Of a DNA stretch of 64,000 nt, positions 897 through 42,125 are shown in pieces (position 1 is the stretch's first letter; each line of letters starts with the position of its first letter). The stretch spans positions 441,915-505,914 of the forward strand of contig CAVSEI010000011.1 in NCBI GenBank assembly GCA_963726965.1. The letters are read 5' to 3'. The position numbers were made by a program, and so were the translations under genes. This stretch comes from an uncultured Actinomycetes bacterium. GTDB lineage: Bacteria > Actinomycetota > Acidimicrobiia > IMCC26256 > DASPTH01. Below the pieces are notes generated by a model. That model saw only the letters and a list, made by a program, of their open reading frames with translations, did not search any database and was not told where the DNA came from.

Positions 897-1414
897 GCCG
901 CGTCCCTCCGGTAGCCGAAGCCGGTCCACCGTTCGACACCGCAGAGTTCGTTGCGCTGGTTGCGGTACTCGACGTCGATCACCCAGAAGCGACCGGTACC
1001 GAGTCGACGGGTCTGTTCTTCGCTCACCGAGACGAGGCGTTGCGCGCTGGTGATCGTGTCGCCGGGCCGCACCGGTTCGTGGAAGGTGGTGACGTTCTCG
1101 GTCATGATCGCTTCGGGGAGCTCGAACCGGGCCTTCAGGTCGAAGTGGATCTGCAGCGGGAGCTTCTCGACCGTGCGTCCGGGCGCCCAGTGGTGCGGCC
1201 GGAACCACGCCGAGAGCATCGACAGCGGCGCGATGGGCCCACCGGTGATCTCGTTGGCGACCGCATCGTCCCAGAAGATCGGGTTGGCGTTCTCCACCGA
1301 CGCCGCGCTGGTCCAGAAGTACCCGCGCTCGACGGGGAACTCACCCTCCTCCTCGTACTGCAGCTGTCCGATGAGGGACTGCACGTCGCTCGGCAGACCC
1401 GCCGTCGAACTCAT
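893..1414 (-). CDS. MaoC_dehydrat_N-type hot-dog subunit (partner of the adjacent MaoC subunit; HadA/HadB or ChsH1/ChsH2-like arrangement)
   Basis: These are the last 173 codons of ORF 893..1669. ATG 1414..1412 overlaps the stop of the upstream gene (ATGA). The sequence reads MSSTAGLPSDVQSLIGQLQYEEEGEFPVERGYFWTSAASVENANPIFWDD...GTGRFWVIDVEYRNQ. Confidence 0.8.
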   Translation of the reverse strand: MSSTAGLPSDVQSLIGQLQYEEEGEFPVERGYFWTSAASVENANPIFWDDAVANEITGGPIAPLSMLSAWFRPHHWAPGRTVEKLPLQIHFDLKARFELPEAIMTENVTTFHEPVRPGDTITSAQRLVSVSEEQTRRLGTGRFWVIDVEYRNQRNELCGVERWTGFGYRRDAA

Positions 1415-2574
1415 GCCACCACCCCCGAATGGTGCAGCTCGGCGATCTCGTCGGCGGACAGGCCGGCACCGAGCAGCAGCGTGTCGGTGTCGGTGGTCGT
1501 GGCATCGCGCGCCTCGTACCGCGGATCGGGCCGCTGCATGCCCGCGAACACGGGACCGACCTGGCGGAAGGTTCCGTGCTCGGCGTGATGGGCCGACGCG
1601 TAGTCGCCCCTCGCCACGAACTGCTCGTCCTCGAGCACTTCCGGGACGGTGAGCACCGGCGCGACACACGTGTCGGCCGCGGCGAGAAACTCAGTCCACT
1701 CATCGCGGTCGCGGGTGAGGAAGGCCGCGCGCACGTCGGCGCGGATCTGGTCCTGCACCGCGTCGTCGTGCTGGTGCGCAGCCCAGCGTGCGAGGCCGAG
1801 GAGCTCGCAGAGGTTCCCCCAGAAGCGTGGCTCGATCGCGGCGACGGTCATCCACTGTCCATCGCGTGTCGGGTAAGTGTCGTAGCAGGCGTAGCGGCCG
1901 GTGAGCAGCCCGTGTCGAGGCCCGGGGACCTCACCAGTGGCGCAGTACTCGTCCACCGCGAGGGCCATCAGGCCGAGCACGCCGTCGGCGATCGACACGT
2001 CGAGGTACGCACCCTCGCCGCTCGTCGCCCGCCGCACCAACGCCGCCAGGATCGCCATCACCGCGTGCATGCCCCCACCCGCGCTGTCGGCGACGGTCAA
2101 GCCGGGAATGGGGGGTTGACCATCGGGGCCACGGCCGCCGCAGTGCAGGAAGCCGCCGACGCCGAGGTAGTTCAGATCGTGTCCCGCCCACTGCGACCGG
2201 GGTCCGGACTGGCCGAAGCCGCTGGTCGCGCAGTAGACGAGACTCGGGTTGCGGGTCGAGGCTGCCTCCCAGCCGATGCCGAGACGATCGACGACCCCGG
2301 GGCGGAAGCTCTCGATCACCACGTCGGCGTGCTCCACCAGGCGCAGGAACACGTCGCGACCCTCGGGCGTCTTCATGTCGACGAGGGCGCGCTGCATCCG
2401 CCGGTGCGCGCTGTAGGCATAGAACGGCGGGGTGATCTGCACGCCGGTGTCCTTGGGCACCGGTCCGACCTTCACGACCGTCGCGCCGTAGTCGGCGAGC
2501 CAGCGCGACGCGTGCGCCGCCGGCCCCACGCTCGCGAGGTCCAGCACCGTGATGCCCTCGAGCATCTCCGTCAT
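1411..2574 (-). CDS. alpha-methylacyl-CoA racemase-like family III CoA-transferase (CaiB/BaiF fold)
   Basis: Full ORF of 387 aa. GFGQSGPRSQWAGHDLNYLGVGGFL...GLTVADSAGGGMHAVMAILAALV closely resembles the mycobacterial MCR core as I recall it (TGWGQTGPRSQQAGHDINY...VGDFGGGS). The His and Asp positions of the racemase pair are retained. Confidence 0.8.
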   Translation of the reverse strand: MTEMLEGITVLDLASVGPAAHASRWLADYGATVVKVGPVPKDTGVQITPPFYAYSAHRRMQRALVDMKTPEGRDVFLRLVEHADVVIESFRPGVVDRLGIGWEAASTRNPSLVYCATSGFGQSGPRSQWAGHDLNYLGVGGFLHCGGRGPDGQPPIPGLTVADSAGGGMHAVMAILAALVRRATSGEGAYLDVSIADGVLGLMALAVDEYCATGEVPGPRHGLLTGRYACYDTYPTRDGQWMTVAAIEPRFWGNLCELLGLARWAAHQHDDAVQDQIRADVRAAFLTRDRDEWTEFLAAADTCVAPVLTVPEVLEDEQFVARGDYASAHHAEHGTFRQVGPVFAGMQRPDPRYEARDATTTDTDTLLLGAGLSADEIAELHHSGVVA

Positions 2575-2590
2575 CGTCAGCGGACCGTTC

Positions 2591-3772
2591 TCAGAAGTTC
2601 TTCGGAAGACCGAGCTTGCGACGCGAGATGATGTTCTTCTGGATCTCGGAACCGCCGCCGCCGACGGTGTCGATCACGGTGTAGCGGTAGGTCGATTCGG
2701 CCCGGCCCTTCATGGGAGCCTCTTCGGTCTTCACCCGCAGCTGCGAACCCGGACCGCCGAGATCCATGGACGCGTTCGCGAGCCGCTTCGACAGCTCGGT
2801 GGCGAAGAGCTTGTATTCCGACGCCTCGGAGGTGGGCGCGGCGCCGCCCTTCATCGACTTGGCGACGAAGCGCAACCCGAGCACGCGCGCGACTTCTGCA
2901 TCGGTGGCCAGTCGAGCGATCTGCTTGCGGATCACCGCGTCGTCGCGCAACGGCTCACCGTCGACGGTCTCGGTGGCGACGTAGTCACACAGCACGTCGA
3001 GCCGCTGTTTGATCGGCGAGTACGTGAACATGGTGAACCGCTCGAGGTCGAGCGCCTCGGAGATGTACTGAAAACCGTGATTGAGGTCGCCGACGACGTA
3101 GTCGTCGTGGACGAACACGTTGTCGAAGAACACGTCGTTGGTGCGTTCGTCGCCCATGGTCCAGATCGCGTTGATGGTGATGCCGGGGTCGTCGAGCGGT
3201 ACCAGGAACAGCGTGATGCCGTGGTGCTTGGGCGCTTCGGGATCCGTGCGGGCACCCACCCAGTACCACTCGGCGAAGTGGGCCGACGTGGTCCACGTCT
3301 TCTGCCCGTTGAGCCGCCAGCCGTCACCGTCGCGCGTGGCCTTGAGCTTCATCGACGCGGCGTCGGAGCCGGCGTCGGGTTCGCTGTATCCCACGGCGAA
3401 GTCGATCTCGTTGCTCAGGATCTTCGGCAGGAACTCCTTCTGCATCCGCTCGGTGCCGTGGCGGAGGATGGTCTTGCCGATGATGCCGATGCCCTTGCCG
3501 ATCTGGGGCCCTCCGCGGCGGGCCAGCGCCTCGTTGAGCAGATACTCGTAGACACCGTCGCCCTCCTGGCCACCCCATTCCTTGGGCCACGTGATGCCGA
3601 GCCAACCCTGCTCGCCGATCTTGGCCATCAGCGCGCGGCGCTCGGGGATGTCGGCAACCTGGGCCATGTTCTCCCGGGTCACGTCGAAGACGACGGGGTC
3701 GTCGTTGGCGTCGAGGAACGCCTCGACCTCGTCGCGGAACGCGAGCTGTTCGGGCGAGAAGTCGAAATCCAC
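2591..3772 (-). CDS. acyl-CoA dehydrogenase
   Basis: Full ORF of 393 aa starting MDFDFSPEQLAFRDEVEAFL (GTG start). It has ACAD N, middle and C domain motifs, with a C-terminal GGGSEIQKNIISRRKLGLP. Confidence 0.9.
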   Translation of the reverse strand: MDFDFSPEQLAFRDEVEAFLDANDDPVVFDVTRENMAQVADIPERRALMAKIGEQGWLGITWPKEWGGQEGDGVYEYLLNEALARRGGPQIGKGIGIIGKTILRHGTERMQKEFLPKILSNEIDFAVGYSEPDAGSDAASMKLKATRDGDGWRLNGQKTWTTSAHFAEWYWVGARTDPEAPKHHGITLFLVPLDDPGITINAIWTMGDERTNDVFFDNVFVHDDYVVGDLNHGFQYISEALDLERFTMFTYSPIKQRLDVLCDYVATETVDGEPLRDDAVIRKQIARLATDAEVARVLGLRFVAKSMKGGAAPTSEASEYKLFATELSKRLANASMDLGGPGSQLRVKTEEAPMKGRAESTYRYTVIDTVGGGGSEIQKNIISRRKLGLPKNF

Positions 3773-3789
3773 CGGGCCCCCTCAGAAAT

Positions 3790-3804
3790 CTGACGACCCG
3801 TCAG
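3790..3804. promoter_or_regulatory. palindromic operator-like site CTGACG-ACC-CGTCAG (site 1 of 7)
   Basis: A perfect 6+3+6 dyad in the 57-bp gap between CoA-transferase stop 3830 and ACAD start 3772, about 17 nt upstream of that start codon. Confidence 0.6.
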
Positions 3805-3829
3805 TTTAGGCAGTGCGCCGGCGAGTGCA

Positions 3830-5074
3830 TCAACCAGTGACCACACCGTCGGCGATGAGTGCGTCGACGGTCTCGTCGTCGAGACCCAGCTCCTCGGCCA
3901 GGACCGAACGGGTGTGCTCGCCGACCCAGGGGATGCGCGACTCCGGCCCTTCGGCGACCTTCGACAACTTCACCGGGTTGCCCGGGATCACGACGGGTCG
4001 CTCGACGCCGTCGGTGCGCTCCATCTCGATCAGCATGTGCCGGGCTTCGAGGTGAGGGTCGGCCACGACCTCCCGCGCAGTCTGGACCGGTGCCGAAGCG
4101 ATCCCCGCCGCCGACAGCTTCTCCACCGCCTCCATCTTGGTCATGTTCCCGGCCCAGGCCTCGATGGCGGGTCGGAGCATGTCTTCGAGATGCGCGGCCC
4201 AGCCTTCCCGCGTCGCCAGGCGCGGGTCGTCGACCCACTCGGGCCGGCCGACGAGTTGCGCGATTCGCTCGAGTTGGTGCTCGCGCACGAGCTGCAGCAC
4301 GAACCATCCGTTGGACGCACGGAACGGATCGAGGATCGCGCTCCGCGGCTCGTTCAGCCGGTGCTTTCCGAGCGACTCGAAGTTGGTGACGATGTCGGTC
4401 ATGGCCACCGTGGCGTCATACATCGCGATGTCGACTCGCTGTCCCTCACCGGTTGCATCCCGGTGGCGGAGCGCGGCCAGGATGCCGATGGCGGCGAACA
4501 GGGCCGAGCTGATGTCGCCGAGGGCCCCGACGGGGTTGGGTCGGGGCGTTTCGTCGCCGACGAGGACGTAGTCGTAGATGCCCGACATCGCTTCCGCGAT
4601 CGACGCGTACGCGGGCCAGTCGGCGTACGGCGAACCGCTCGCCCCGAACCCCGACACCGAGGCGTAGATCACGGAAGGATGCACTGCCGCGACCGCTTCG
4701 TAGCCGAGACCCATCCGGTCGAGCGCACCCGATTTGAAGTTCTCGGCGAACACGTCGAACTTCGGCGCCAACGCGAGCACCAGTTCCCGACCCTTGTCGG
4801 CCTTGAGGTTCACGGTGACGCTGCGCTTCGAGAGGTTGTTGCGCAGGAACGTGGCGCCGATGAAGCGGCCTTCGGGGTCGTGCATGCCCGGCTGTGAACC
4901 TCGGCCGGACTCGCCGGCCGGCGCTTCGATCTTGACGACATCGGCACCGAGGCGGGCGAGGAGCTGGGTGGCGTAGGGGAGGGCCTGCATCTGTTCCAGG
5001 GCGAGCACCCGCACGCCATCGAGCGGCTTGCCGTACTTCGCCGCACCTTCGTTCGCCACGTCCCCGAGTCGCAC
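3830..5074 (-). CDS. family III CoA-transferase (CaiB/BaiF)
   Basis: ORF 3830..5215. The likely GTG start is at 5074 (or 5059), downstream of the permease stop at 5106. The sequence reads LDGVRVLALEQMQALPYATQLLARLGADVVKIEAPAGE...GQRVDIAMYDA...VGEHTRSVLAEELGLDDETVDALIADGVVTG. Confidence 0.85.
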   Translation of the reverse strand: MRLGDVANEGAAKYGKPLDGVRVLALEQMQALPYATQLLARLGADVVKIEAPAGESGRGSQPGMHDPEGRFIGATFLRNNLSKRSVTVNLKADKGRELVLALAPKFDVFAENFKSGALDRMGLGYEAVAAVHPSVIYASVSGFGASGSPYADWPAYASIAEAMSGIYDYVLVGDETPRPNPVGALGDISSALFAAIGILAALRHRDATGEGQRVDIAMYDATVAMTDIVTNFESLGKHRLNEPRSAILDPFRASNGWFVLQLVREHQLERIAQLVGRPEWVDDPRLATREGWAAHLEDMLRPAIEAWAGNMTKMEAVEKLSAAGIASAPVQTAREVVADPHLEARHMLIEMERTDGVERPVVIPGNPVKLSKVAEGPESRIPWVGEHTRSVLAEELGLDDETVDALIADGVVTG

Positions 5075-5105: not shown

Positions 5106-7208
5106 TCAGGCTCCGGGTGCCGCGCTGACCACCGGTTGCTCGGTGACGTCGGGCGGCGAGGAGGGAGCGGGCGAGTCGTCGGACTCGGCGGCCCGCGCCG
5201 CCCGCTTCTGGGCACGCTTCTCGCGCTGTTCTTCGCCGACGGTCGGGATGATGCCCGCGGGCTGACGGCCGATGCCGATGCCCGCGAGGCCGGGGCCGAC
5301 GGCCGCCCACCACGAGAGGAACGTCGACGACGGGAAGAGCGCGGTCAACCACGTGAAGCCCTGGAGGAAGATGCCGCCGAGCAGGGCACCACTCACCACC
5401 GCGACGCCACCGACGACGAGCAGGAGCAGGTAGCCGAGGCCGGTCAGGACCTGGAAGTCCTGCGGGCTCGCCGAACCGAGCAGCGACCCGAAGAACGCGC
5501 CGGCGAGTCCGGCGATGGCGGCCGAGACCGCGAACACCGCGACCTTCGTCGCGAGCAGGTTCACTCCCAACGTCGTGCACGCGGCGGGGCTGTCGCGCAT
5601 GGCGACCAGCCGTCGCCCAAAGGTGCTGCGACGCATCGCGACCACGAGCATCCCCACGAGCGCGAACGCCAGCGCGGTGACGAACAGCAATCCCGCGTCG
5701 GCAGGAAAGTCGATTCCGAGGATGCTGAACGGCTGACTGGTGTTCCACCCGAAGAGCTTGAGCGGCGGGACGCGCACCGATGACGCGCCGAACACTTCGG
5801 GCTGGCCGAAGAACAAGATCTCCGCCATCGCCGCGAACGACATGGACGCCAGCGCGAGGTACAGACCTTTCAATCGCAGAGCAGGGAGCGCCATCAGGAC
5901 ACCGAAGGGGACGGTGAACAACGCAGCCGCGATGAGACCGACCGCGCTGCCGAGATCGGGACCCCATTTGTAGATGGCGAACGTTCCGGCACCCACGAAC
6001 GTGATCTGGGCGAGTGAGATCTGGCCCGACCAGCCGGTCAGCGGGACCAACGACAACATGATCAACCCGGTGCAGATCGCGAGGTCGAGGTTGCGGATGT
6101 TCTGGCGGTCGAACAGCGCCGCGAGCACGAAGACGACGACGAGCATCGCCGCCATGCCGACCGCCGCCCGACGCAGGGTCGGGACGCGTGCACTGATGGT
6201 GCGCATGGTTCGCTTGCCCTCGATGCGGGCCTCGGGGATGAAGAGCAGCGCGATGAACAGCACGATCGTCGGGATCGCCGGCGCTGCCGAGATCCAGCGA
6301 CCTCCCCACGTGAGGAAGTTGGACTGGAACGAGATCGACAACCCGATGATGATCCCGCCGACGTAGGTCAGCGGCAGGCTCTTCAGACGGCCGATGATCG
6401 CGGCCGCGAATGCGTCGATGATGAGCAGCGTGAGTACCTCGACGTTGAGCTGCGCGAGCTCCTCCGCGAGAAAGATGCCCGCGATCGCCGCCATCGACGA
6501 GCCGAGTGCCCACGAGACCATCGAGATGCGTCCGGGACGAGCGCCGTTGAGTGCGGCAAGCTCCCGGTTGTCGACCACGGCGCGCATGGCGATCCCGAGA
6601 CGGGTTCGGTACAGCACGAAGCGGAGCACCAGGGCGATGACGAGACCGGCCACGATGGTGATGAACCGATACCAGGGAATGAACGTGCTGCCGAGGTTGA
6701 ACCCTTCGCTCCCGAAGAACGTCGTGATGCTGGGCGGGTTGCCGGGATCCCACACCTTCAGGGCGAAGCCGATCATCGCGAGCATCAGCCCGATGGTCAC
6801 CACGAGCTGCGCGACGAGCGGCGCATCCCACATCCTCCGCATGAGGATGCGTTCGACCAGCGCGCCGAACAACGGGGCGGCCACCAGCACCGTGAGCCCC
6901 ACCGCGACCAGCGTGTTCCAACCGAGGTCGACCTTGAATTCCCAGTAGATGAACGCCATCAGCATCCCGATGGCACCCTGGGCGAAGTTGAAGATGCCCG
7001 ACGTCGTGTAGGTGACGACCAGACCGGCGGCCGCGACCGCGTAGATCGAACCCAGCGTCACGCCGACGATGAGGAAGAACAGGATCGAGTCGAACGTGAC
7101 CGGGTTGCCCGCCCACGACTCCTGGATCACGTAGCCCAGGAGGAGCGCGACGACGAGCGCGGAGATCAACCGTCCCCGGTTGCCCCGCGCCGTCAGTCGC
7201 TGGATCAT
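5106..7208 (-). CDS. branched-chain-amino-acid-type ABC transporter permease, fused LivH-LivM (two permease domains in one 700-aa protein)
   Basis: Full ORF of 700 aa, highly hydrophobic throughout. The N-terminal half is LivH-like (GSIYAVAAAGLVVTYTTSGIFNFAQGAIGML) and the second half is LivM-like (GWSGQISLAQITFVGAGTFA). It has an acidic/Pro-rich C-terminal tail and no Walker motifs. Confidence 0.85.
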   Translation of the reverse strand: MIQRLTARGNRGRLISALVVALLLGYVIQESWAGNPVTFDSILFFLIVGVTLGSIYAVAAAGLVVTYTTSGIFNFAQGAIGMLMAFIYWEFKVDLGWNTLVAVGLTVLVAAPLFGALVERILMRRMWDAPLVAQLVVTIGLMLAMIGFALKVWDPGNPPSITTFFGSEGFNLGSTFIPWYRFITIVAGLVIALVLRFVLYRTRLGIAMRAVVDNRELAALNGARPGRISMVSWALGSSMAAIAGIFLAEELAQLNVEVLTLLIIDAFAAAIIGRLKSLPLTYVGGIIIGLSISFQSNFLTWGGRWISAAPAIPTIVLFIALLFIPEARIEGKRTMRTISARVPTLRRAAVGMAAMLVVVFVLAALFDRQNIRNLDLAICTGLIMLSLVPLTGWSGQISLAQITFVGAGTFAIYKWGPDLGSAVGLIAAALFTVPFGVLMALPALRLKGLYLALASMSFAAMAEILFFGQPEVFGASSVRVPPLKLFGWNTSQPFSILGIDFPADAGLLFVTALAFALVGMLVVAMRRSTFGRRLVAMRDSPAACTTLGVNLLATKVAVFAVSAAIAGLAGAFFGSLLGSASPQDFQVLTGLGYLLLLVVGGVAVVSGALLGGIFLQGFTWLTALFPSSTFLSWWAAVGPGLAGIGIGRQPAGIIPTVGEEQREKRAQKRAARAAESDDSPAPSSPPDVTEQPVVSAAPGA

Positions 7209-7210
7209 CG

Positions 7211-8547
7211 TCAGCCTTGGAGCAAGTCGAGCTTCCGTTGGATCACGTTCTTCGGATTGCAGTCGAACGTGCCGGGCTTGCTCGGGAACACGCGAACGTA
7301 CTTCCCGTTCTTCACCTGCATCAGGACGTAGCAGTCGGTGATCTTCTTGGCCGCGAGGTCGGCCGTCGTCCCGTACATCCCGTCGGCGTCGAACTTGTGG
7401 ATGCCGTCCAGCGCGGTGAACAGCGCCTTGCGGGTCAGCCCGTCGTTCCCGGCGGTCTTGACCACCGAAGCCACGGCATCACGCAACAGCAGGCCGACGG
7501 CCCACGCGATCACCGAGTAGCCGTTGGCTTTGTCCTTGCCGACGTACTTCAGGAAGTTGGCCATCATCGGGTTGGACTTGGCCTCCTCGAACGGGAGGAA
7601 TCCGATCTGCACGTACTCGCCGTCGATGTCGGCCCCGCCCTGCGGGATGAAGGTCGGGTCGTAACACGTGGTGTTGCAGTCCCAGACCTTCACGCTGTTG
7701 ACGCCCTGGAGCTTGGCTTCCTTGCGGAGCTTGATCGTGCACCCGGGCGGGTTGCCGCACTGGGCGAGGGTCGAACTGTTCTGCTTGATGGCCTGGACGA
7801 CCGGCGTGTACGCGCTCTGGGGGACCGAACCGCCGAGCGGGAACTCACCGTCGAGCTTGATGCCGACCTGGTTGTCGTAGATGCCACCCTGGCCGACGAA
7901 CTGCGCGTCGCGTGCCGACTTGAGGTCGGCGGAGTCGATGAAGATCCCGTGGAGGCCCTTCCCGAACTTCGTCTTGTAGTAGTTCGCGCGCCCGACGTTC
8001 GCCTGGTAGGTCTGCGGGTGCTGGTCCTTCGTCGAGCAGACGATCGCCGGCGGGTTCACCGCGTACGTCGTCTTCGAGCACTGTTGCGCCACGCTGGTGT
8101 AGAGCGTCGCCAGGTCGGGAAGGCCCGTGGTCGCGCCGGTGGAGTCCTTGCACCCCTCGACGTCGTCGACGTTGGCGAGGAACAGCGCGGCCGCGACGAC
8201 GGCGAAGTCGTCCGAACAGGACGTGATCATCGCGTTCGGGACTCGGAGCCACTGAGCTTGGAGTCGTGGAAGTCGACGACGACCTTGCGCCCCGCGAGCC
8301 CGCCCTGCGCGTTGATGTACTTGGCGAAGCCGTTGAACCCGTCGACGACACCCTGGAACAGACCCGGTGCGAGCGGGGTGTCGACGTCGGCGACCACCGC
8401 GATCTTGAGCTCGGTCGGCGTGACCCCGACGTCGGACGACTTCGTGGGCTTGGCCGCCCGCTCGGTCCCGGCGCTCGCGGTGACCGCGCTGCTCGCCATG
8501 ACGATCGCCACGCCCAGTACGAGCGCAACCCAACGGAACCTCTTCAT
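7211..8547 (-). pseudogene. ABC transporter substrate-binding protein (LivK family), one apparent frameshift
   Basis: The signal peptide and N-terminus lie in ORF 8227..8547 (MKRFRWVALVLGVAIVMASSAVTASAG...KIAVVADVDTPLAPG...GRKVVVDFHDSKL). The remainder is in the 7211.. frame from MITSCSDDFAVVAAALF onward. The frames join near 8230-8240; adding one A would give ...SESRNAMITSCSDDF. Confidence 0.8.
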
Positions 8548-8665: not shown

Positions 8666-10069
8666 ATGCGCGGAATCGTTTCCTGGGCCGCCTACCTGCC
8701 GTACCGAAGGCTTGATCGCACGCAGATCGCCCCGTTCGTCGGTCAGGGTGGGGGGAAGGGCACCCGCACGGTGGCGTCCTTCGACGAGGACTCCACCACG
8801 ATGGGGGTCGAAGCGGCGCGCCTCGCCCTCCGGGACCGCGACGTGACGCCGGCGCAGCTGTTGTTCGCCACCTCCTTCCCCGCGTACGCCGACAAGACCA
8901 ACGCCAGCGCGATCCATGCCGCCCTGCGTCTGCCGGCGAGCGCGCCGGCATTCGACCTGGGTGCATCGGTGCGCTCTGCGGTCGGCGGCCTCCTGCTCGG
9001 ACTGACCGGTACCGTCGACGCCGCCCTCGTGATCGGCGCCGACGTCCGCACCGGGCTGCCCGGGAGCGGTGAGGAGGCAGCCGGTGGTGACGCCGCGGCC
9101 GCATTCGTCGTGGGCGACGAGTCCGCGGGTCCACTCGTGGCCGAGTTCTTGGGATCGGCGAGCGTCACGGACGAATTCGTCGAGCGCTGGCGAGCGCCCG
9201 GAGAACTCCGGACCCGGGTGTGGGACGAGAAGTTCAGCGAGGTCACGTACGTCCCGTTGGGGGTGCAGGCATGGAACGCCGCGCTCGAATCGGCGGGGCT
9301 CACCGCGGGCGATGTCGCGGCCGCGGCGGTTGCGGCCCCTGCGCAGCGCGTGGCGCGCGCGGTCGGCGGCAAGCTCGACGGCGTGCACGTGATCGACGAT
9401 CTTTCGACGGTCGTCGGCAACTGCGCGGCTGCACAACCAGGCCTGTTGTTGGCGGCGTTGCTCGAACAGGCCGAATCCGGTCAGGTGCTGGCTCTCGTGG
9501 TCCTCGCTGACGGTGCTGACGTGTTGTTGTTCCGCGCCACCGATGGGTTGGCCTCGTACCGGCCTGCCCGCACCATCGCCGAGCAAGTCGCGGCCGGCGC
9601 GGCGCTGCCGTACGGCAAGTTCCTGGCGTGGCGCGGCATGTTGCCCGTCGAACCCCCCCGGCGCCCCGAGCCGCAACGCGTGTCGGCGACGGCCGCGGCG
9701 CGCAGCGAGGACTGGAAGTTCGGTTTTGTCGGGTCGAAGGAACGCGACACGGGAGTGGTGCACCTGCCGCCGGCGCGCGTGTCTCGCGATGGCGAGCACA
9801 CCGACGAGATGGAACCGGTCGCGCTCGCCGACGTCCGCGGCACCGTGGTCACGTTCACCATCGATCGCATGGCGTACTCACCCAGCCCACCCGTGGTGTT
9901 CGCGGTCGTGGACTTCGACGGCGGCGGGCGGCTCCCCCTCGAGCTCACCGACGCTGACGCCGACGAGATCGAGATCGGTCAACGGGTGGAGATGACGTTC
10001 CGTCGCCTCTTCACCGCCGACGGGATCGTCAACTACTTCTGGAAAGGGAGGTTGATGCGCGATGGCTAG
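8666..10069 (+). CDS. HMG-CoA-synthase-like (thiolase-fold) protein fused to a C-terminal DUF35/OB-fold domain; catalytic residues apparently substituted
   Basis: ATG 8666 is in frame inside ORF 7217..10069. The motifs VASFDEDSTTMGVEAARLAL, LVIGADVRTGLPGSGEEAAGGDAAAAFVV, DEFVERWRAP and VVGNCAAAQPGLLLAALL follow the HMGCS family pattern. The C-terminal VRGTVVTFTIDRMAYSPSPPVVFAVVDFDGGGRLPLELTD...IGQRVEMTF is a DUF35 OB-fold. The protein has only one Cys in total. Confidence 0.75.
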   Translation: MRGIVSWAAYLPYRRLDRTQIAPFVGQGGGKGTRTVASFDEDSTTMGVEAARLALRDRDVTPAQLLFATSFPAYADKTNASAIHAALRLPASAPAFDLGASVRSAVGGLLLGLTGTVDAALVIGADVRTGLPGSGEEAAGGDAAAAFVVGDESAGPLVAEFLGSASVTDEFVERWRAPGELRTRVWDEKFSEVTYVPLGVQAWNAALESAGLTAGDVAAAAVAAPAQRVARAVGGKLDGVHVIDDLSTVVGNCAAAQPGLLLAALLEQAESGQVLALVVLADGADVLLFRATDGLASYRPARTIAEQVAAGAALPYGKFLAWRGMLPVEPPRRPEPQRVSATAAARSEDWKFGFVGSKERDTGVVHLPPARVSRDGEHTDEMEPVALADVRGTVVTFTIDRMAYSPSPPVVFAVVDFDGGGRLPLELTDADADEIEIGQRVEMTFRRLFTADGIVNYFWKGRLMRDG

Positions 10070-11259
10070 CCACGGCATCAAGGATCGCGTCGCCATCGTC
10101 GGGATGGGGTGCACCAACTTCGTCGAGCACTGGGGCAAAGGGCTCGACGACCTGGTGATCGAAGCAGCCAACGAGGCCTATGCCGCCGCCGGGATGGACA
10201 AGCCTGATGTCGACGCGTACTGGCTCGGTACCGCCAACGGTGGTATGAGCGGCATCACGCTGGCGCGTCCGCTGCAGTTGGTCGACAAGCCCGTCACCCG
10301 GGTCGAGAACTACTGCGCGACGGGCGCGGAGTCGTTGCGGCAGGCCGCGTACGCGGTTGCATCCGGCGCCTACGACACCGCGATGGCGATCGGAGTCGAG
10401 AAGACGAAGGACGGCGGCTTCCAGGGGCTCAACGCGGTGGCCCCACCGAACGACGGGACCGGGCGCACGCTCACCGCCGCCGCGATGTTCTCGATGGTCG
10501 CGCCGGCCTACGCCGCGAAGTACGGCGTCGACCCCGACAAGATGCGTGAGGCGATGGCCCACGTGGCGTGGAAGAACCACTTCAACGGCGCGCGGAATTC
10601 ACGCCGCGCAGTTCCGGCGCGAGGTGTCGATCGAGACCATCTGCAACTCGCCGAAGATGGCAGGCGACCTGCGGGTGTTCGATTGCGCGGGCGTCGCCGA
10701 CGGTTCCGCGGCGGCAATCGTGTGTCGCGCCGAAGATGCGCACAAGTACACCGACACCCCCATCTTCGTGAAGGCGCTGTCGTTCATCGCCGGGAACGGC
10801 AGCGGCGTCACCGACCCGAGCTACGACTACACGAACTTCCCCGAGATCGCGGCGACCGCGCGCGACGCGTACGCCCAAGCGGGGATCACCGATCCACGTC
10901 GGGAGTTCGCACTCGCCGAGGTCCATGACTGCTTCACCATCACCGAGCTCGTGCTCATGGAGGACCTGGGGTTTTCCGAGCGGGGCGCCGTGTGGCGCGA
11001 TGAGCTCGACGGCGTCTACGACCTCGACGGCGAGCTGCCGGTCAACCCGGATGGCGGCTTGAAGTCGTTCGGCCACCCGGTCGGCGCGTCGGGATTGCGC
11101 ATGATGTTCGAGGCCTGGTTGCAGCTGCGGGGTGAAGCGCCGCCCGAGCGTCAGATCGAGGCGGCGAAGCCGGGCGGTGACCGCGGGTTGGCGCTGACCC
11201 ACAACCTCGGCGGCTACCCGGGCGAGATGGTCAGCTTCGTCTCGATCCTGGGGCGGTAG
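10062..11259 (+). pseudogene. SCP-x/Ltp-type thiolase-like protein (nonspecific lipid-transfer-protein thiolase family), one apparent frameshift
   Basis: ORF 10062..10928 (MASHGIKDRVAIVGMGCTNF...VENYCATGAESLRQAAYAVASG...AWKNHFNGARN) continues in ORF 10357..11259 (AAQFRREVSIETICNSPKMAGDLRVFDCAGVADGSAAAIV...NPDGGLKSFGHPVGASGLRMM). The frames join near 10595-10600 (+1 nt). The start overlaps the upstream gene by 8 nt. Confidence 0.8.
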
Positions 11260-11262
11260 ACC

Positions 11263-12000
11263 GTGTTCGACCTGAGCGGACGGGTGGCCGTCGTCACCGG
11301 CGCGGGGCAGAACGTCGGAGCGGGGATCGCACGCGCGCTGGCGGCGCGGGGTGCATCGGTGTTCGTGAACGACATCGTCGGTGAACGGGCAGCCGACACG
11401 GTGGCCCAGATCGCCGGCGCCGGGGGGACGGCCGCGGTCGCTCCGTTCGACGTCACCGACTACGACGACGTGACCGCGGCGATCAGCGACATCGGAACCG
11501 TCGACATCCTGGTCAACAACGCCGGCAACGGCGGCGCCGAGGGCATGGGTCTCGTGCAGTTCCGGGAAAGCGAACCGGCCGGATGGAACGGCGCGATCAA
11601 CGTGAACCTCTTCGGCGTCATGCATTGCGCGCGGGCCGTCGTCAACGGCATGTGCGAGCGCGGCTTCGGGCGCGTCATCACCATCTCGTCCGGCGCCGGC
11701 ATCACGGGACTCAACATCGGCGTGTCGCCCTATGCCGCCGGGAAGGGCGGCGCCATCTCGTTCATGCGCCACCTCGCGTCGGAGACGGCGCGCTACGGCG
11801 TCACCGCCAATTCATTGGCCCTCGGCATGATGCAGCCGGCGACTGCCGACGCGACTGCGGCGCTGGTCAAGCAGATCCCGGTACGGCGCACGGGCACGCC
11901 CGAAGACGTCGGCGCGGCGTGCGTCTATCTCGCGTCCGACGAAGCGTCGTGGATGACCGGTCAGACACTCCACCTCGACGGCGGTGCCACCTTCTCGTAG
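11263..12000 (+). CDS. short-chain dehydrogenase/reductase (SDR)
   Basis: Full ORF of 245 aa with a GTG start 4 nt after the upstream stop. It has VAVVTGAGQNVGAGIA (a TGxxxGxG-type motif), NNAG, and YAAGKGG (the YxxxK region). Confidence 0.85.
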   Translation: MFDLSGRVAVVTGAGQNVGAGIARALAARGASVFVNDIVGERAADTVAQIAGAGGTAAVAPFDVTDYDDVTAAISDIGTVDILVNNAGNGGAEGMGLVQFRESEPAGWNGAINVNLFGVMHCARAVVNGMCERGFGRVITISSGAGITGLNIGVSPYAAGKGGAISFMRHLASETARYGVTANSLALGMMQPATADATAALVKQIPVRRTGTPEDVGAACVYLASDEASWMTGQTLHLDGGATFS

Positions 12001-17694: not shown

Positions 17695-18843
17695 TTACAG
17701 GCGCTCGATGATGGTGACGTTGGCCTGACCGCCGCCCTCGCACATGGTCTGCAGACCGTAACGACCACCCGTGCGCTCGAGCTCGTTGAGCAAGGTCGTC
17801 ATCAGACGCGCGCCGGTGGCGCCGAGTGGGTGACCGAGCGCGATCGCACCACCGTTCACGTTCACCTTGGCGAGGTCGAAGCCGGTTTCCTTCTGCCACG
17901 CGAGCACGACCGACGCGAACGCCTCGTTGATCTCGACGAGATCGATGTCGTCGACGCCCATGCCGGTCTTCTGGAACGCGTACTCGGTGGCCGGGATCGG
18001 CGCGCTGAGCATCATGACCGGATCGTCGGCGCGGACACTCATGTGGTGGATGCGGGCACGCGGCGTGAGACCGTGGTCCTTCACCGCTTGCTCACCGGCG
18101 ATCAGGATCGCGGCCGACGCATCGCTGATCTGGCTCGACACCGCCGCGGTCAGACGGCCGCCTTCGATGAGCGTCGGGAGGGACCGGATCTTGTCCCAGT
18201 TGGGCTCGCGCGGTCCTTCGTCGAAGGTGCAGTCGCCGAGCGGCACGATCTCGCGCTCGAATCGTCCTTCGGTGCGTGCGCGCAGTGCACGCTCGTGCGA
18301 CTCGACCGCGAACTGTTCCATGTCGTCGCGGGAGATGTCCCACTTCTCGGCGATCATCTCGGCACCGCGGAACTGCGACACCTCCTGGTCGCCGTAGCGC
18401 GCCTGCCAGCCCGGTGAGTTGGAGAACGGCGTCTCGTGCCCGTAGGCCTGCCCGGCGACCATCGCGCTCATGATCGGGATCTGACTCATGTTCTGCACAC
18501 CACCCGCGACGACGAGGTCCATCGTCCCGGACATCACCGCCTGCGCGGCGAAGTGGACGGCCTGCTGCGCGGAACCACACTGTCGGTCGACGGTGGTGCC
18601 GGGCACGTGCTCCGGGAATCCGGTGACGAGCCAACACGTGCGGGCGATGTCCCCCGCGTTCGGGCCGATGCTGTCGACGTTGCCGAAGACGACGTCGTCG
18701 ACCGCGGCCGGGTCGATGCCGGCCCGCTCGACGAGCGCCTTGATGGAGTGCCCACCGAGGTCGGCCGGGTGCACCTGGGAGAGGCCACCACCCCTGCGCC
18801 CGACGGGGGTGCGGACTGCTTCGACGATGTAGGCCTCGGCCAT
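17695..18843 (-). CDS. acetyl-CoA C-acyltransferase (degradative thiolase)
   Basis: ATG 18843 lies within ORF 17695..18984. The sequence reads MAEAYIVEAVRTPVGRRGG...VDRQCGSAQQAV (nucleophile Cys)...NEAFASV...GGAIALGHPLGATGARL...CEGGGQANVTIIERL. Confidence 0.9.
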   Translation of the reverse strand: MAEAYIVEAVRTPVGRRGGGLSQVHPADLGGHSIKALVERAGIDPAAVDDVVFGNVDSIGPNAGDIARTCWLVTGFPEHVPGTTVDRQCGSAQQAVHFAAQAVMSGTMDLVVAGGVQNMSQIPIMSAMVAGQAYGHETPFSNSPGWQARYGDQEVSQFRGAEMIAEKWDISRDDMEQFAVESHERALRARTEGRFEREIVPLGDCTFDEGPREPNWDKIRSLPTLIEGGRLTAAVSSQISDASAAILIAGEQAVKDHGLTPRARIHHMSVRADDPVMMLSAPIPATEYAFQKTGMGVDDIDLVEINEAFASVVLAWQKETGFDLAKVNVNGGAIALGHPLGATGARLMTTLLNELERTGGRYGLQTMCEGGGQANVTIIERL

Positions 18844-18860
18844 ACCAATCACCAATCTCT

Positions 18861-20063
18861 CTAGATGGTCACGATCACGGATGACCCATGTCCGAACAAA
18901 CCCTGGTTGGCGGTGATTCCCACCCGCGCGCCCTCGACCTGGCGACCCTCGGCCTGGCCCCGGAGTTGCCAGGTGACTTCGCACACCTGGGCGATGGCCT
19001 GCGCCGGGATCGCCTCGCCGAAACAGGCGAGCCCGCCGCTCGGGTTGACGGGGATGCGGCCGCCGAGTTCGGTGGCGCCCGACCGGAGCAGGGCCTCCGC
19101 CTCGCCTTCACCGCAGAGCCCGATGTTCTCGTACCAGTCGAGCTCGAGTGCCGTGGAGAGGTCGTAGACCTCGGCCAGGCTGAGGTCCTCGGGCCCGATG
19201 CCGGCTTCGTCGTAGGCGGCACCCGCGATCGAGTCCTTGAAGGTGCGCTCCGGCGGCGCGACCGCCGCGCTCGAGTCGGTGGCGAAGTCAGGGAGCTCGA
19301 GCACGGTCTGGGGGTAGCGCGGCGTCACCGTGGAGACGGCCTTGACGCGCGGCACGCCGTCGGTGTTCCCGAGCGTGCTCCGGGCGAAGTCCATGCTCGA
19401 CACGATCAGCGCGGCGGCGCCGTCGGACGTCGCGCAGATGTCGAGGAGCCGGAGGGGATCGGCGACGACGGGGCTGTTCACGACGTCGTCGACGGTGTTC
19501 TCCTTGCGGAACCGGGCGTTCGGATTGTTCAGGCCGTGGTGCGAGTTCTTGACCTTCACCCGCGCGAAGTCTTCGGTCGTCGCGCCGTAGACGTCCATAC
19601 GGCGTCGGGCGTAGAGCGCGAAGTAGACCGGGTTGGTCGCACCGAGCAGGTGGAAGCGCAGCCAGTCGGGATCGGTCCTGCGTTCGCCGCCGACCGGGGC
19701 GAAGAAGCCCTTCGGAGTGGTGTCGGCGCCGATGACCAGCGCGACATCGCAGTACCCGGCGAGGATCTGCGCGCGGGCCTGGTGAAGCGCCTGTGCACCG
19801 GACGCGCACGCGGCGTAGCTCGACGACACGCGCACGCCGGTCCATCCGAGCTTCTGGGCGAAGGTCGCGCCGGCGATGAATCCGGGGTAGCCGTTGCGGA
19901 TGGTGTCGGCGCCCGCGACGTACTGGATGTCGCGCCACGCCAACCCGGCGTCGGCGAGCGCGGCGCGCGCCGCGACCATGCCGTACTCGGTGAAGTCACG
20001 GCCCCACTTGCCCCAGGGGTGCATCCCCACCCCGAGGATGGCGACGTCGCGTTCCGCGCTCAC
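18861..20063 (-). CDS. SCP-x/Ltp-type thiolase-like protein
   Basis: GTG 20063 overlaps the DUF35 stop (GTGA) within ORF 18861..20426. The sequence reads VSAERDVAILGVGMHPWGKW...SSSYAACASGAQALHQA...NPSGGLACFGEAIPAQ. Confidence 0.85.
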   Translation of the reverse strand: MSAERDVAILGVGMHPWGKWGRDFTEYGMVAARAALADAGLAWRDIQYVAGADTIRNGYPGFIAGATFAQKLGWTGVRVSSSYAACASGAQALHQARAQILAGYCDVALVIGADTTPKGFFAPVGGERRTDPDWLRFHLLGATNPVYFALYARRRMDVYGATTEDFARVKVKNSHHGLNNPNARFRKENTVDDVVNSPVVADPLRLLDICATSDGAAALIVSSMDFARSTLGNTDGVPRVKAVSTVTPRYPQTVLELPDFATDSSAAVAPPERTFKDSIAGAAYDEAGIGPEDLSLAEVYDLSTALELDWYENIGLCGEGEAEALLRSGATELGGRIPVNPSGGLACFGEAIPAQAIAQVCEVTWQLRGQAEGRQVEGARVGITANQGLFGHGSSVIVTI

Positions 20064-20509
20064 GGCGCCGCCGGTGTCGCCGGTGCCCAGACGTAGACGA
20101 GGTACTCGTGCTCGTCGTCGCGGTAGAGCGCATCGACCTCGAGCTGCATCTCCATGCCGACGTGCAACTCGTCGGCCCGTACCCCCTTGGCGACCTGGCC
20201 CAGGACGACGATGCCCTCCTCGGTCAGCTCGACCGCGGCGAGCGCGTACGGCTCGAACGGCTCGGCAGCGACGTAGGGCGGGGGCGGCGCGTAGTGGTTC
20301 TCGGTGTACGACCACACCGTGCCCCGCCGCGAGAGCTCGGTCGGCTCGAGCGTGTCCGAGTCGCACTCCGGGTTCGGGCAGGCATCGGCGCGGGGCGGGA
20401 ACACGATGGTCGTGCACCGGGGGCACCTGGCGCCGATGAGCCGGGGCTCATTGGCGTCGGTCGTGAACCAGCCCTCGACGGCAGGGACGCGCGTTACGGT
20501 TTCTGACAC
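20060..20509 (-). CDS. DUF35 protein (zinc-ribbon plus OB-fold, acyl-CoA-associated)
   Basis: Full ORF of 149 aa. It has a four-Cys ribbon (GARCPRCTTIVFPPRADACPNPEC) followed by an OB-fold (GTVWSYTENHY...YALAAVELTEEGIVVLGQV). Confidence 0.85.
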   Translation of the reverse strand: MSETVTRVPAVEGWFTTDANEPRLIGARCPRCTTIVFPPRADACPNPECDSDTLEPTELSRRGTVWSYTENHYAPPPPYVAAEPFEPYALAAVELTEEGIVVLGQVAKGVRADELHVGMEMQLEVDALYRDDEHEYLVYVWAPATPAAP

Positions 20510-30973: not shown

Positions 30974-31011
30974 GGTGAGGTGATGCGGAATCGACCGTGG
31001 AACAGGAGAAA

Positions 31012-32465
31012 ATGGTGAACCGAGACAAGTTCTTCATTGGTGGCGACTGGGTGGACCCGGCCGGGAACGACACGCTGGCCGTGATCTCGCCGGCGACCGA
31101 GGAAGTCATCGCCAAGGTTCCTGACGCGACCACCACCGACGTCGATCGCGCGGTCGCCGCCGCCCGCCAGGCGGTCGACTCCGGCCCGTGGCCACAGATG
31201 TCACCCGCGGAGCGGGCCGACGTGATGGCCGTCATCTCCGGTCTCCTGCAGGCACGCTACGAGGAGATCGCGCAGACCATCTCCGAGGAGATGGGCTCAC
31301 CGATCTCGTTCTCGGTGATGGGTCAGGTCTTCGCCGCGACCATGGTGCTCGACTACTACACCGGTCTGGCCCGTGAGTTCGCGTTCGAGGAGCGCCGCCC
31401 CGGCATTCTCGGTCCGACGCTCGTCCGCCGCGAGCCGGTCGGCGTCGTCGGCGCGATCATCCCGTGGAACGTGCCGCTGTTCGTGACCATGCTGAAGGTG
31501 GCCCCCGCGCTCGCATCGGGGTCGACCGTGGTGCTCAAGCCCGCACCCGAGACGCCGCTCGACGCGTACATCCTCGCGGAAGTCGTCAAGGAAGCCGGCC
31601 TCCCTGCGGGGCGTACTCAACATCGTGCAAGCGGGTCGTGAAGTCGGCGAGCACATCGTCACCCACCCGGACGTCGACAAGATCTCGTTCACCGGTTCGA
31701 CGGTTGCCGGCAAGAAGATCGCTGCACTGTGCGGTGCGCAGCTGAAGCGATGCACGCTCGAGCTCGGCGGCAAGTCCGCGGCGATCATCCTCGACGACGC
31801 CGACCTTGCCGCGACGATCCCGGCCCTGATGCCGAACGCGTTGATGAACAACGGCGAGGCGTGCGTGGCGCAGACGCGCATCCTCGCTTCGCGTGAGCGC
31901 TACGCCGAAGTGGTCGACGCGCTGGCTGCGGCGGTGTCGGGTTCCAAGGTCGGCGAGCCGCTCGATCAGGAGACCGTCGTCGGCCCGCTGTTCGCGTTCG
32001 CGACACCGTGACCGCGTCGAGGGCTACATCGCCAAGGGCAAGGAAGAGGGTGCGCGTCTCGTCGTCGGTGGTGGCCGTCCCGCCGGCTTCGACAAGGGTT
32101 GGTACGTCGAGCCGACGCTCTTCGCCGACGTCGACAACAAGATGACGATCGCGCAGGAGGAGATCTTCGGGCCGGTGCTCGTGGCGATTCCCTATGACGA
32201 CGTCGACGATGCGGTGGCGATCGCCAATGATTCCGACTACGGACTCTCGGGCTCGGTGTGGACGTCTGATGCTCAGGCCGGCGTCGACGTCGCCCGGCGC
32301 GTGCGGACCGGGACCTACGGCATCAACGGGATGGGCATGGACTTCTCGTCCCCGTTCGGTGGCTTCAAGCAGTCCGGCATCGGTCGCGAGCTCGGCCCCG
32401 AGGGGCTCGAGGAGTTCCTCGAGTCGAAGACCATCGTGCTGCCGGCCGGCTTCGAACCTGCCTAG
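31012..32465 (+). pseudogene. NAD(P)-dependent aldehyde dehydrogenase, two apparent frameshifts
   Basis: The gene runs through three frames. The first gives MVNRDKFFIGGDWVDPAG...GAIIPWNVPLFVTMLKVAPALASGSTVVLKPAPETPL. The second gives VLNIVQAGREVGEHIVTHPDVDKISFTGSTVAGKKI...ELGGKSAAIILDDAD...[13 protein letters not shown]. The third gives [19 protein letters not shown]...[36 protein letters not shown]. The frames join at a G-run near 31607-31611 and near 31991. Confidence 0.85.
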
Positions 32466-41166: not shown

Positions 41167-41200
41167 TCCGCTGATCCGAATCACCCAGGGGGACACCGCG

Positions 41201-42125
41201 ATGCCGCTCGACGCCGATTTCCTGGAGCTCGCCGCCCGCGTCCGCAATTGGGGCCGTTGGGGACCCGACGACGAGCTGGGCACGCTCAACCTGATCGATG
41301 ACGCAGCAGTGAAGCGCGGTGCCGCGTGCGTGCAGAACGGAAAGACGTTCTCGCTCGCGATCCCGCTCGACGACAACGGCCCGCAGATCGGGTTCATCCC
41401 CGGCCGCTACAACCCGATCCACAAGGTCTTCCAGATCAACGAGGTCACCATCGGTGATCCTGACGGCACCCGGTTCTCCGACGATCAGATGGACCTCGCG
41501 CTGCAGGCGTGCACGCACTGGGACGCGCTCTCCCACTCGAGCTACGGCGGGAACCTCTGGAACGGGCATCCGGCCGACGCCATCACGGAGACGGGCGCTT
41601 CCAAGTGTGGCATCGGTCTGGTGAAGACGCTGGTGACGCGCGGCGTGCTGCTCGACATCGCGCGGCTCAAAGGCGTCGACGTGATCGAGGCCGGTACGCC
41701 GTTCACCGGCGCGGACCTCGACGCCGCGTGCGAGGCCGGTGGCGTCACCGTCGAACCCGGCGATGTCGTACTCCTGCGGACCGGCGCGATGTCACTGTTC
41801 CTCGCCGGTGACCGGGAGGGGTACGCCTCGACGAACGCGGGACCGTCGCTGCAGAGCGTCGAGTGGTTCCACGACCACGACGTCGCCGCCGTCGCCACCG
41901 ACAACCCGACGTTCGAGCACGTCGACTTCGAACGATCCGTGCCGCTCCCCGTCCACGCGATCCACCTCGTCGACATGGGGATGACCCAAGGGCAGAACTG
42001 GAACCTGGACGAACTTGCGGCTGACTGCGCTGTCCGACGGGCGCTACACCTTCCTGCTCTCGGCCACGCCCGAGCCGGTCACCGGAGGCACCGGCGCTCC
42101 CGTCGTCCCCGTCGCGGTGAAGTAG
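41201..42125 (+). pseudogene. putative cyclase / kynurenine-formamidase-like family protein, one apparent frameshift near the 3' end
   Basis: The first ~275 codons of ORF 41201..43006 give NWGRWGPDDELGTLNLI...ACTHWDALSHSSYGG...GDVVLLRTG...VATDNPTFEH. The C-terminus LSDGRYTFLLSATPEPVTGGTGAPVVPVAVK-TAG (42123..42125) is in the +1 frame. The frames join near 42026-42030. Confidence 0.75.

Follow-up and report, generated by a model that had tools for sequence, protein, structure and literature searches.

Gene organization at the locus

We analyzed a window of 64,000 nucleotides (contig CAVSEI010000011.1, G+C content about 68%) from an uncultured bacterium of the class Acidimicrobiia, whose closest relatives are soil metagenome-assembled genomes (MAGs) of the MFD series and other Acidimicrobiales. 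Our subject is a pair of adjacent genes on its forward strand. The first encodes a fusion of a domain resembling hydroxymethylglutaryl-CoA (HMG-CoA) synthase (HMGS) with a DUF35 domain, the second a thiolase of the sterol carrier protein 2 (SCP2) type. A reading of the window from sequence only, made before this work, had proposed that the fusion has lost its catalytic residues and serves its neighbor as a non-catalytic partner, and our analyses support this proposal. The pair comprises the following elements, with the evidence for each in brackets:

8666..10069, forward strand: gene of the HMGS-like/DUF35 fusion, 467 residues plus stop (translation; 100% identity to database protein P0001)
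8666..9640, forward strand: HMGS-like thiolase-fold domain, residues 1–325 (phmmer and hhalign to 6esq_I, Foldseek)
9641..9715, forward strand: linker and N-terminal helices of DUF35, residues 326–350, with a conserved EPPRRPEP motif (alignment)
9716..9817, forward strand: Cys-less zinc-ribbon remnant of DUF35, residues 351–384 (alignment; no PF12172 match)
9818..10066, forward strand: DUF35 oligonucleotide/oligosaccharide-binding (OB) fold, residues 385–467 (Pfam PF01796, E 1e-14; structure matches)
10046..10069, forward strand: gene junction with GGGAGG at 10046–10051, thiolase ATG at 10062–10064 and fusion stop TAG at 10067–10069 (sequence)
10062..11259, forward strand: gene of the SCP2-type thiolase, 398 residues once an extra C is removed (NCBIfam, PDB match, motifs)
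10314–10316, forward strand: thiolase Cys85 (NYCATG motif)
10924–10935, forward strand: thiolase HDCF, residues 288–291 (motif)
11071–11079, forward strand: thiolase GHP, residues 337–339 (motif)

The two reading frames overlap by 8 nt (ATGGCTAG, 10062..10069), as had been read from the sequence before, and the GGGAGG stands 10 nt before the thiolase ATG.

Fold of the fusion protein

Translation, Pfam, NCBIfam and structure matches confirmed the HMGS-like/DUF35 fusion of 467 residues that had been described at 8666..10069. Its sole Pfam domain is the DUF35 OB-fold PF01796 (residues 385–446, 54.6 bits against a cutoff of 27.1); Pfam finds neither a zinc-ribbon domain (PF12172) nor an HMGS domain, with PF08541 giving no match. 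In NCBIfam, the fusion reaches 112 bits on the archaeal HMG-CoA synthase model PRK04262 (cutoff 244) and 76 bits on TIGR00748 (cutoff 353). Against solved structures, phmmer placed the N-terminal 320 residues closest to 6esq_I (E 1.6e-15), followed by PhlA and MucA, and residues 351–460 matched the DUF35 subunit of the archaeal thiolase/HMGS/DUF35 complex.

Structure prediction followed by Foldseek had been proposed as a check along with the sequence-only reading. An AlphaFold2 model of the fusion, built from 84 family representatives, reached a predicted local distance difference test score (pLDDT) of 96.7 and a predicted template modeling score (pTM) of 0.95. Foldseek ranked 6esq_I first (TM-score 0.87 on the target, root-mean-square deviation 2.3), then MucA (9vbo) and PhlA (5m3k, 9skh), with free-standing bacterial HMGS and FabH below 6esq_I, MucA and PhlA. 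A separate model of residues 326–467 (pLDDT 93) gave a full-length match to every solved DUF35. Its best matches were the DUF35 subunits of complexes of HMGS with acetyl-CoA acetyltransferase (ACAT) and DUF35, PhlB (9skh_E) leading by E-value and 6esq_E-G reaching a TM-score of about 0.80 on the target; further matches were PhlB (5m3k_B), MucC (9vbt_G), ChsH2-DUF35 (6ok1_B), BbsA (7pxp_A) and also 9myr. The top ranks were thus held by HMGS and DUF35 subunits of 6ESQ, MucABC and PhlACB. The 467-residue protein is an archaeal-type HMGS fold and a DUF35 domain in one polypeptide, and, with the thiolase included, each of the pair's three modules finds its best counterparts in the corresponding subunits of one set of solved complexes: archaeal 6ESQ, PhlACB and MucABC.

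Loss of the catalytic residues

Residues were mapped onto 6esq_I, the numbering of which reproduces the published archaeal tetrad E82/C114/H238/N270. For this, we used both a pairwise phmmer alignment and hhalign of the 84-member family profile (probability 99.9%, E 5e-33). The 84 family members represent 50%-identity clusters and are 29–58% identical to the query; below, we further refer to 81 species-level Acidimicrobiia orthologs of the fusion and to 75 orthologs of the thiolase. The two alignments agree on all four tetrad positions, and the fifth entry was read from the sequence:

8873–8875, forward strand: E82 replaced by Ser70
8969–8971, forward strand: C114 replaced by Val102
9332–9334, forward strand: H238 replaced by Ala223
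9419–9421, forward strand: N270 retained as Asn252
9422–9424, forward strand: Cys253, the only Cys of the fusion

With both alignments settling on S70, V102 and A223, the Glu/Cys/His triad is absent rather than present at shifted positions. The earlier mapping by eye was hence right about the absence of the triad, and wrong by one residue in its Cys register, where it had chosen Ser101 instead of Val102. None of the 84 representatives and none of the 81 Acidimicrobiia orthologs carries Glu, Cys or His at the three sites, so the substitutions are not due to chance. The retained Asn252 stands in a column that is variable across the fusion family. Cys253, correctly recognized before as the single Cys of the protein, is not conserved in alignments of relatives, and 43 of the 81 orthologs are entirely Cys-free. 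The structural hallmarks of HMGS are kept (DED, D97, D126, E137 and R176). With its catalytic Glu/Cys/His gone and its score under the curated cutoff, the fusion does not qualify as an HMG-CoA synthase (EC 2.3.3.10).

The partner thiolase and its frameshift

In the assembly, the thiolase frame is interrupted by a single surplus C at 10604/10605; once this base is deleted, the protein reads NGARNSRAQFRREVS, just as its relatives do. Added together, the scores of the two halves on NCBIfam PRK06157 come to 558 bits (cutoff 403), and the Thiolase_C_1 domain PF22691 was found with an E-value of 2.8e-30. Among solved structures, 6esq_A is the best match (E 7.7e-51); SCP2-type thiolases and BbsB rank after it, for example SCP2-thiolase type-1 (6hsj, E 6e-36). 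The nucleophile, which the sequence-only reading had seen retained, is indeed present as Cys85 of NYCATG, accompanied by HDCF and GHP. All 75 orthologs share Cys85, H288-D-C290-F and G-H338-P without exception. From this motif set, the protein is predicted to be a working SCP2-type thiolase, and neither a Tyr-based aldolase nor an HDxF-less Friedel-Crafts acylase.

The extra base might also be taken to mean that the operon is decaying, the thiolase frameshift being real and the fusion an orphaned relic. We consider this improbable. Apart from the extra C, the thiolase is 95% identical to intact orthologs with a ratio of nonsynonymous to synonymous substitution rates (dN/dS) of about 0.05, and the 75 orthologs are intact. 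At least four other single-base frameshifts occur in the window, and related MFD-series MAGs contain many split genes. Given a total of at least five such frameshifts in the window and the unbroken orthologs, the thiolase frameshift is most likely an indel error of long-read assembly. The frameshift pattern of the window as a whole, which affects otherwise well-conserved genes, likewise points to long-read indel errors rather than pseudogenes. Elsewhere, the gene of a solute-binding protein (7220..8547, reverse strand) switches frame near 8235, and an aldehyde dehydrogenase (30979..32465, forward strand) is spread over three frames by two frameshifts (Pfam profile positions 1–184, 183–312 and 314–461). 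In a stand-alone DUF35 gene (56405..56816, reverse strand), the ATG is out of frame with the body.

A DUF35 domain without ribbon cysteines

The DUF35 part of the fusion has the OB-fold and lacks a C4 or C3H1 zinc-ribbon site. At the four ribbon positions, where relatives have Cys, we found:

9740–9742, forward strand: ribbon position 1, E359
9749–9751, forward strand: ribbon position 2, T362
9782–9784, forward strand: ribbon position 3, S373
9791–9793, forward strand: ribbon position 4, G376

These residues align with the CxxC...CxxC of both stand-alone DUF35 proteins of the window, of one Rhodococcus fusion and of more distant fusions, and the reported absence of ribbon cysteines is thereby confirmed. 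The two stand-alone proteins had been cited for comparison. The one at 20060..20509 (reverse strand) reads CPRC...CPNPEC as described and, unlike the fusion, matches PF12172. For that at 56405..56816, the motif CAEC...CGEC is present, and the span of 412 nt carries a frameshift near its 5' end.

How far the Cys-less fusion has spread was surveyed as had been suggested. All four ribbon cysteines are kept in 73 of the 84 wider-family representatives, among which the ribbon-less state comprises the clade of the window (6 representatives) and three small groups; by contrast, none of the 81 Acidimicrobiia orthologs has a ribbon Cys of any kind. Ribbon loss is therefore a trait of one subclade and not of the whole fusion family. 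Within the Acidimicrobiia clade, the replacements are themselves conserved, with Asp/Glu in 74, Ser/Thr in 77, Ser in 73 and Gly in 71 of 81 orthologs. The ribbon region was modeled at a pLDDT of at least 96, and its backbone topology is still predicted. Zinc is coordinated by four Cys in all solved DUF35 homologs except CtShy, which has C3H1 (PMC12329534). Since every solved DUF35 thus binds zinc, a ribbon with no Cys at all departs from these structures in a modest but real way, and the complete loss of the zinc-binding Cys is new.

Linkage, selection and family size

Of 82 related loci, 80 have a thiolase ortholog as the next gene downstream, in the same orientation, and the remaining two are contig ends. 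The genes overlap at 23 of 78 junctions (12 of them by 8 nt as in the window) and are separated by at most 30 nt at another 39, which together makes 62 of 78. Both genes are under purifying selection, with dN/dS values against relatives of 0.09–0.19 for the fusion and 0.05–0.11 for the thiolase. The fusion evolves faster, its mean ortholog identity to the window being 62% compared with 75% for the thiolase. Furthermore, conservation is higher in its linker and OB-fold than in the HMGS-like body (71% identity to orthologs in the linker segment, residues 326–350, versus 59% in the body), which fits a structural, interface-dominated role.

The family is large. More than 7,700 clusters at 90% identity match the fusion in a search limited to 8,000 candidates, 573 representatives at 50% identity do so at E ≤1e-30, and members occur in Actinomycetota, Pseudomonadota, Chloroflexota and Clostridia. 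A Variovorax fusion is 32.8% identical to that of the window (E 1e-26). The fusions of Rhodococcus sp. DK17 (plasmid pDK3) and R. qingshengii combine a dead tetrad with an intact CCCC ribbon. In cultured bacteria, the pair is annotated as "OB-fold domain-containing protein" and "acetyl-CoA acetyltransferase".

Gene neighborhood

Around the pair, we assigned the following genes by Pfam, the first three being divergent from the fusion:

1411..2673, reverse strand: family-III CoA-transferase
2591..3781, reverse strand: acyl-CoA dehydrogenase (ACAD)
3830..5074, reverse strand: second family-III CoA-transferase
11263..12000, forward strand: FabG-like short-chain dehydrogenase/reductase (SDR), 3 nt after the thiolase stop (adh_short_C2, E 1.9e-46)

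Orthologs of the CoA-transferase/ACAD module (1411..5074) stand beside the fusion in about 33–39 of 81 loci. The genes downstream of the thiolase code for the SDR, an epimerase-like protein and a pair of ACADs, and their conservation does not reach beyond the closest relatives (6 for the SDR); the SDR is a probable 3-hydroxyacyl-CoA dehydrogenase of the operon. NCBIfam gave sub-threshold matches only for these neighbors, to PimC/PimD-like dehydrogenases and dicarboxylate CoA-transferases. A substrate assignment from NCBIfam was dropped, as every neighbor match fell far under its curated cutoff.

Between the fusion and the CoA-transferase/ACAD module lies an ATP-binding cassette (ABC) transporter (5106..8547, reverse strand), made of a solute-binding protein and a fused permease, which was found in the window and one relative only (L001/L003). 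Some two dozen related loci have a CoA-transferase or ACAD gene no more than about 150 nt from the fusion. The transporter thus seems to have been inserted recently between two divergent genes whose arrangement is conserved.

On Rhodococcus and Variovorax plasmids, the pair sits inside beta-oxidation-like clusters with hydratases, dehydrogenases, CoA ligases and ring-hydroxylating dioxygenases. Two such fusion/ACAT loci, on R. qingshengii plasmid pdjl-6-4 (L084, 5100..13580) and on Variovorax sp. SRS16 plasmid 3 (L085, 1648..13169), hold dioxygenase alpha and beta subunits, several enoyl-CoA hydratases, an SDR, an ACAD and FAD oxidoreductases, and the R. qingshengii locus also an AMP-binding CoA ligase. 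These neighborhoods suggest side-chain processing of aromatic acids; a literature search yielded no usable link to ibuprofen-type side-chain clusters. On pDK3 of Rhodococcus sp. DK17 (L083, 1..14494), the pair is followed by a second thiolase, an SDR and a crotonase, and upstream on the opposite strand are genes of a CaiB/BaiF CoA-transferase, an ACAD and an HMG-CoA lyase. The CoA-transferase and ACAD theme therefore recurs outside the Acidimicrobiia.

The 64-kb window contains two more pairs of DUF35 and SCP2-type thiolase, both with normal C4 ribbons (18861..20509, reverse strand; 56405..56816, reverse strand, with the gene just downstream), as well as a classical thiolase (17695..19107, reverse strand). 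With three DUF35/thiolase pairs and a classical thiolase, the region is thus dense in thiolase systems. A stop-free frame at 40913..43003 (forward strand) matches Cyclase PF04199 and luciferase-like monooxygenase PF00296 and may be two adjacent in-frame genes or one fusion. Scans for Rfam families, promoters and terminators found nothing.

Discussion

It is likely that the fusion protein is a non-catalytic HMGS-like/DUF35 scaffold for the adjacent, degradative SCP2-type thiolase. Its condensing residues are gone, its modules match those of 6ESQ, PhlACB and MucABC, and it is paired with the thiolase in almost all related loci. Going by sequence, a structural role next to the thiolase, with no catalysis of its own, is the most likely one. 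The product of the two genes would be a heteromeric, degradative 3-ketoacyl-CoA thiolase, one of the bacterial ACAT/HMGS-DUF35 complexes, presumably descended from the archaeal thiolase/HMG-CoA synthase/DUF35 complex. The invariant motifs suggest that all chemistry would be done by the SCP2-type thiolase, in which Cys85 would form the acyl-enzyme, HDCF would supply His288 and the acid/base Cys290, and His338 would be contributed from within GHP. By homology, the fusion would act as the structural partner that has lost the Glu/Cys/His condensing machinery. Its thiolase-fold body would dimerize, and its DUF35 module would grip the thiolase. The dead HMGS pocket would probably line one side of a common CoA- or acyl-binding chamber and would probably also maintain the thiolase in a soluble, assembled state; on its own, MucB is insoluble and inactive. 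In the Acidimicrobiia clade, a conserved set of Asp/Glu, Ser/Thr, Ser and Gly stands in place of the DUF35 zinc site, from which we predict a ribbon that folds metal-free. From its neighborhood, the pair probably carries out the thiolytic step of a CoA-ester catabolism together with the neighboring CoA-transferases, ACADs and SDR.

A pseudo-enzyme arrangement of this kind had been thought uncharacterized in the sequence-only reading, which is not the case. In PhlACB, described in 2018, the HMGS-like PhlA lacks Cys and Glu, DUF35 forms a bridge and catalysis falls to PhlC (PMC6392133). Liao et al. (Nat Commun 2026, PMC12960953) mined 1,030 bacterial HMGS/ACAT/DUF35 loci, 1,001 of them without biosynthetic neighbors, and from Pseudomonas fluorescens they purified a fused HMGS-DUF35 whose E-C-H-N tetrad is lost, together with an ACAT in which Cys, HDxF and GHx are preserved. 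This complex cleaves acetoacetyl-CoA and makes neither HMG-CoA nor acetoacetyl-CoA, hence is a degradative thiolase only, and the exchange H294Y abolishes cleavage (PMC12960953). Because the window pair shares its architecture and motif pattern with the P. fluorescens pair, the claim of novelty falls.

The likeness to the P. fluorescens pair, judged by architecture and motifs only, comprises the HMGS-like and DUF35 parts in one polypeptide, an adjacent SCP2/archaeal-type ACAT with Cys, HDxF and GHx, the lost tetrad, the absence of polyketide synthase (PKS) or nonribosomal peptide synthetase (NRPS) neighbors and an implied degradative thiolysis. The window fusion is without ribbon Cys. In contrast to the P. 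fluorescens protein, it retains the tetrad Asn, has no PF08541 match and comes from Acidimicrobiia. Moreover, the window pair stands in a conserved catabolic neighborhood, whereas the P. fluorescens example was seen as not yet recruited to a pathway (PMC12960953). This conserved catabolic synteny speaks for a genuine part in a pathway and against an intermediate yet to be recruited. The published mining required PF08541 (PMC12960953), and the window protein and most of its Acidimicrobiia relatives match PF01796 only; the Acidimicrobiia clade is therefore probably missing from the published 1,030 loci. The best 120 matches of a search seeded with the Variovorax fusion contained no Pseudomonas entry, only Burkholderiales names.

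Among the other known systems, the archaeal 6ESQ complex provides the best match for both the thiolase and the HMGS-like domain and a near-best one for DUF35, and its thiolase motifs Cys, HDCF and GH are identical to those of the window thiolase. It differs in that its HMGS is active (E82, C114, H238, N270) and channels acetoacetyl-CoA into HMG-CoA, and in its separate, zinc-binding DUF35. PhlACB (PpATase, 5M3K) and MucABC (SmaATase, 9VBO) share the tripartite composition, the HMGS-like subunit without Cys/Glu, the DUF35 bridge and a thiolase-like subunit as the only catalytic one. However, they consist of three separate subunits with a zinc-binding DUF35, have lost HDxF in PhlC and MucB, and transfer acetyl groups to small molecules in antibiotic biosynthesis, whereas the window pair keeps HDCF and lies in a catabolic context. 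The benzoylsuccinyl-CoA thiolase BbsAB (7PXP) likewise has a DUF35 on an SCP2-type thiolase with HDxF and acts in CoA-ester catabolism, but it has no HMGS-like component, and its DUF35 has a C4 zinc site. Ltp2-ChsH2(DUF35) (6OK1) and Sal-Shy(DUF35) (9MYR) also attach DUF35 to a thiolase-fold enzyme of CoA-ester catabolism. Here, the HMGS-like component is missing, DUF35 is carried by a MaoC-type hydratase, HDxF is replaced by YDHF or YDCY, and zinc is bound by a C4 site in ChsH2-DUF35 and by a C3H1 site in Shy-DUF35 (PMC12329534).

Next to operon decay, which was weighed above, an equally improbable alternative is that the HMGS-like domain has gained a Cys-independent catalytic or ligand role, for example binding of a distal carboxylate via the near-invariant Arg103. 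Purifying selection over the whole HMGS-like domain would fit this, as would the presence of Arg103 in 77 of 84 representatives directly after the dead Cys site and the resemblance of the neighboring CoA-transferases and ACADs to dicarboxylate enzymes above all others. However, the conserved polar residues all have counterparts in true archaeal HMGS (R103 corresponds to K115), so they look inherited and not newly acquired. In addition, the tetrad positions vary freely across the family, and the P. fluorescens complex showed no activity beyond thiolysis (PMC12960953).

The sequence-only reading had left the partner as a thiolase or an aldolase, of which the thiolase stands. A retro-aldolase complex of steroid side-chain cleavage, like Ltp2-ChsH2(DUF35) or Sal-Shy(DUF35), would also have DUF35 tethering a thiolase-fold enzyme; our DUF35 model matches 6ok1 and 9myr too, and MaoC-type hydratase genes occur near the pair in relatives. 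We nevertheless think it very unlikely. Cys85, HDCF and GHP are invariant, whereas the aldolases carry YDHF (TcLtp2) or YDCY (CtSal) (PMC12329534), and the window DUF35 is fused to an HMGS-like body instead of a hydratase. The window thiolase also matches Ltp2 (6ok1_A, E 5e-21) less well than the archaeal thiolase. Just as remote is a Friedel-Crafts C-acyltransferase of secondary metabolism like PhlACB or MucABC. It would have the same three modules with a dead HMGS-like unit, but PhlC and MucB have lost the HDxF that the window thiolase keeps and are far weaker matches to it (E 1e-22 and 6e-11, respectively) than the archaeal enzyme. Moreover, no PKS or NRPS domain was found among the neighbors examined, where catabolic CoA enzymes stand instead. 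Finally, the fusion can hardly be a working HMG-CoA synthase or other Claisen-condensing enzyme, as its HMGS-type fold with Asn252 and the kept hallmarks and the JGI and NCBI name "hydroxymethylglutaryl-CoA synthase" might suggest, since Glu/Cys/His are S, V and A and never E, C or H in the 84 representatives or 81 orthologs, many orthologs are Cys-free, NCBIfam scores lie far under their cutoffs, and neither an archaeal tetrad mutant nor the P. fluorescens fusion complex made HMG-CoA (PMC12960953).

Several observations weigh against a scaffolded, degradative thiolase. The thiolase reading frame is broken in the assembly, and the likeness to the P. fluorescens complex is one of architecture and motifs. 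With every solved DUF35 binding zinc, a ribbon devoid of Cys might have other properties. Conservation of the downstream SDR and ACAD pair stops at the closest relatives, and no neighbor matches a characterized pathway above curated cutoffs.

We further propose, tentatively and at a little less than an even call, that Acidimicrobiia possess a metal-free, often fully Cys-free DUF35 scaffold in which Asp/Glu, Ser/Thr, Ser and Gly take the place of C4. In this proposal, the pair would be the dedicated thiolase, and no evolutionary leftover, of a conserved pathway built on two family-III CoA-transferases and a PimC-like ACAD. Loss of the zinc site might be tolerated through the covalent tether of DUF35 to the HMGS-like body, and the substrate of the pathway might be a dicarboxylic or branched acyl-CoA.

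In general, the arrangement is widespread in bacteria, with one example characterized biochemically in 2026, and the window pair is otherwise an ordinary member. New here are the Acidimicrobiia clade without ribbon Cys and the conserved CoA-transferase and ACAD neighbors, the latter suggesting that the pair truly serves catabolism. Such fusion/thiolase pairs abound, and the database label "HMG-CoA synthase" is a routine misnaming: for these pairs, a mevalonate-pathway label is wrong, and they are better understood as degradative thiolases with a scaffold. What the fused form does physiologically was left open in the 2026 study, and the conserved catabolic neighborhood offers a concrete lead to the substrate. 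The clade-wide loss of the four zinc ligands, in turn, is a natural experiment on the need for the DUF35 ribbon in assembly.

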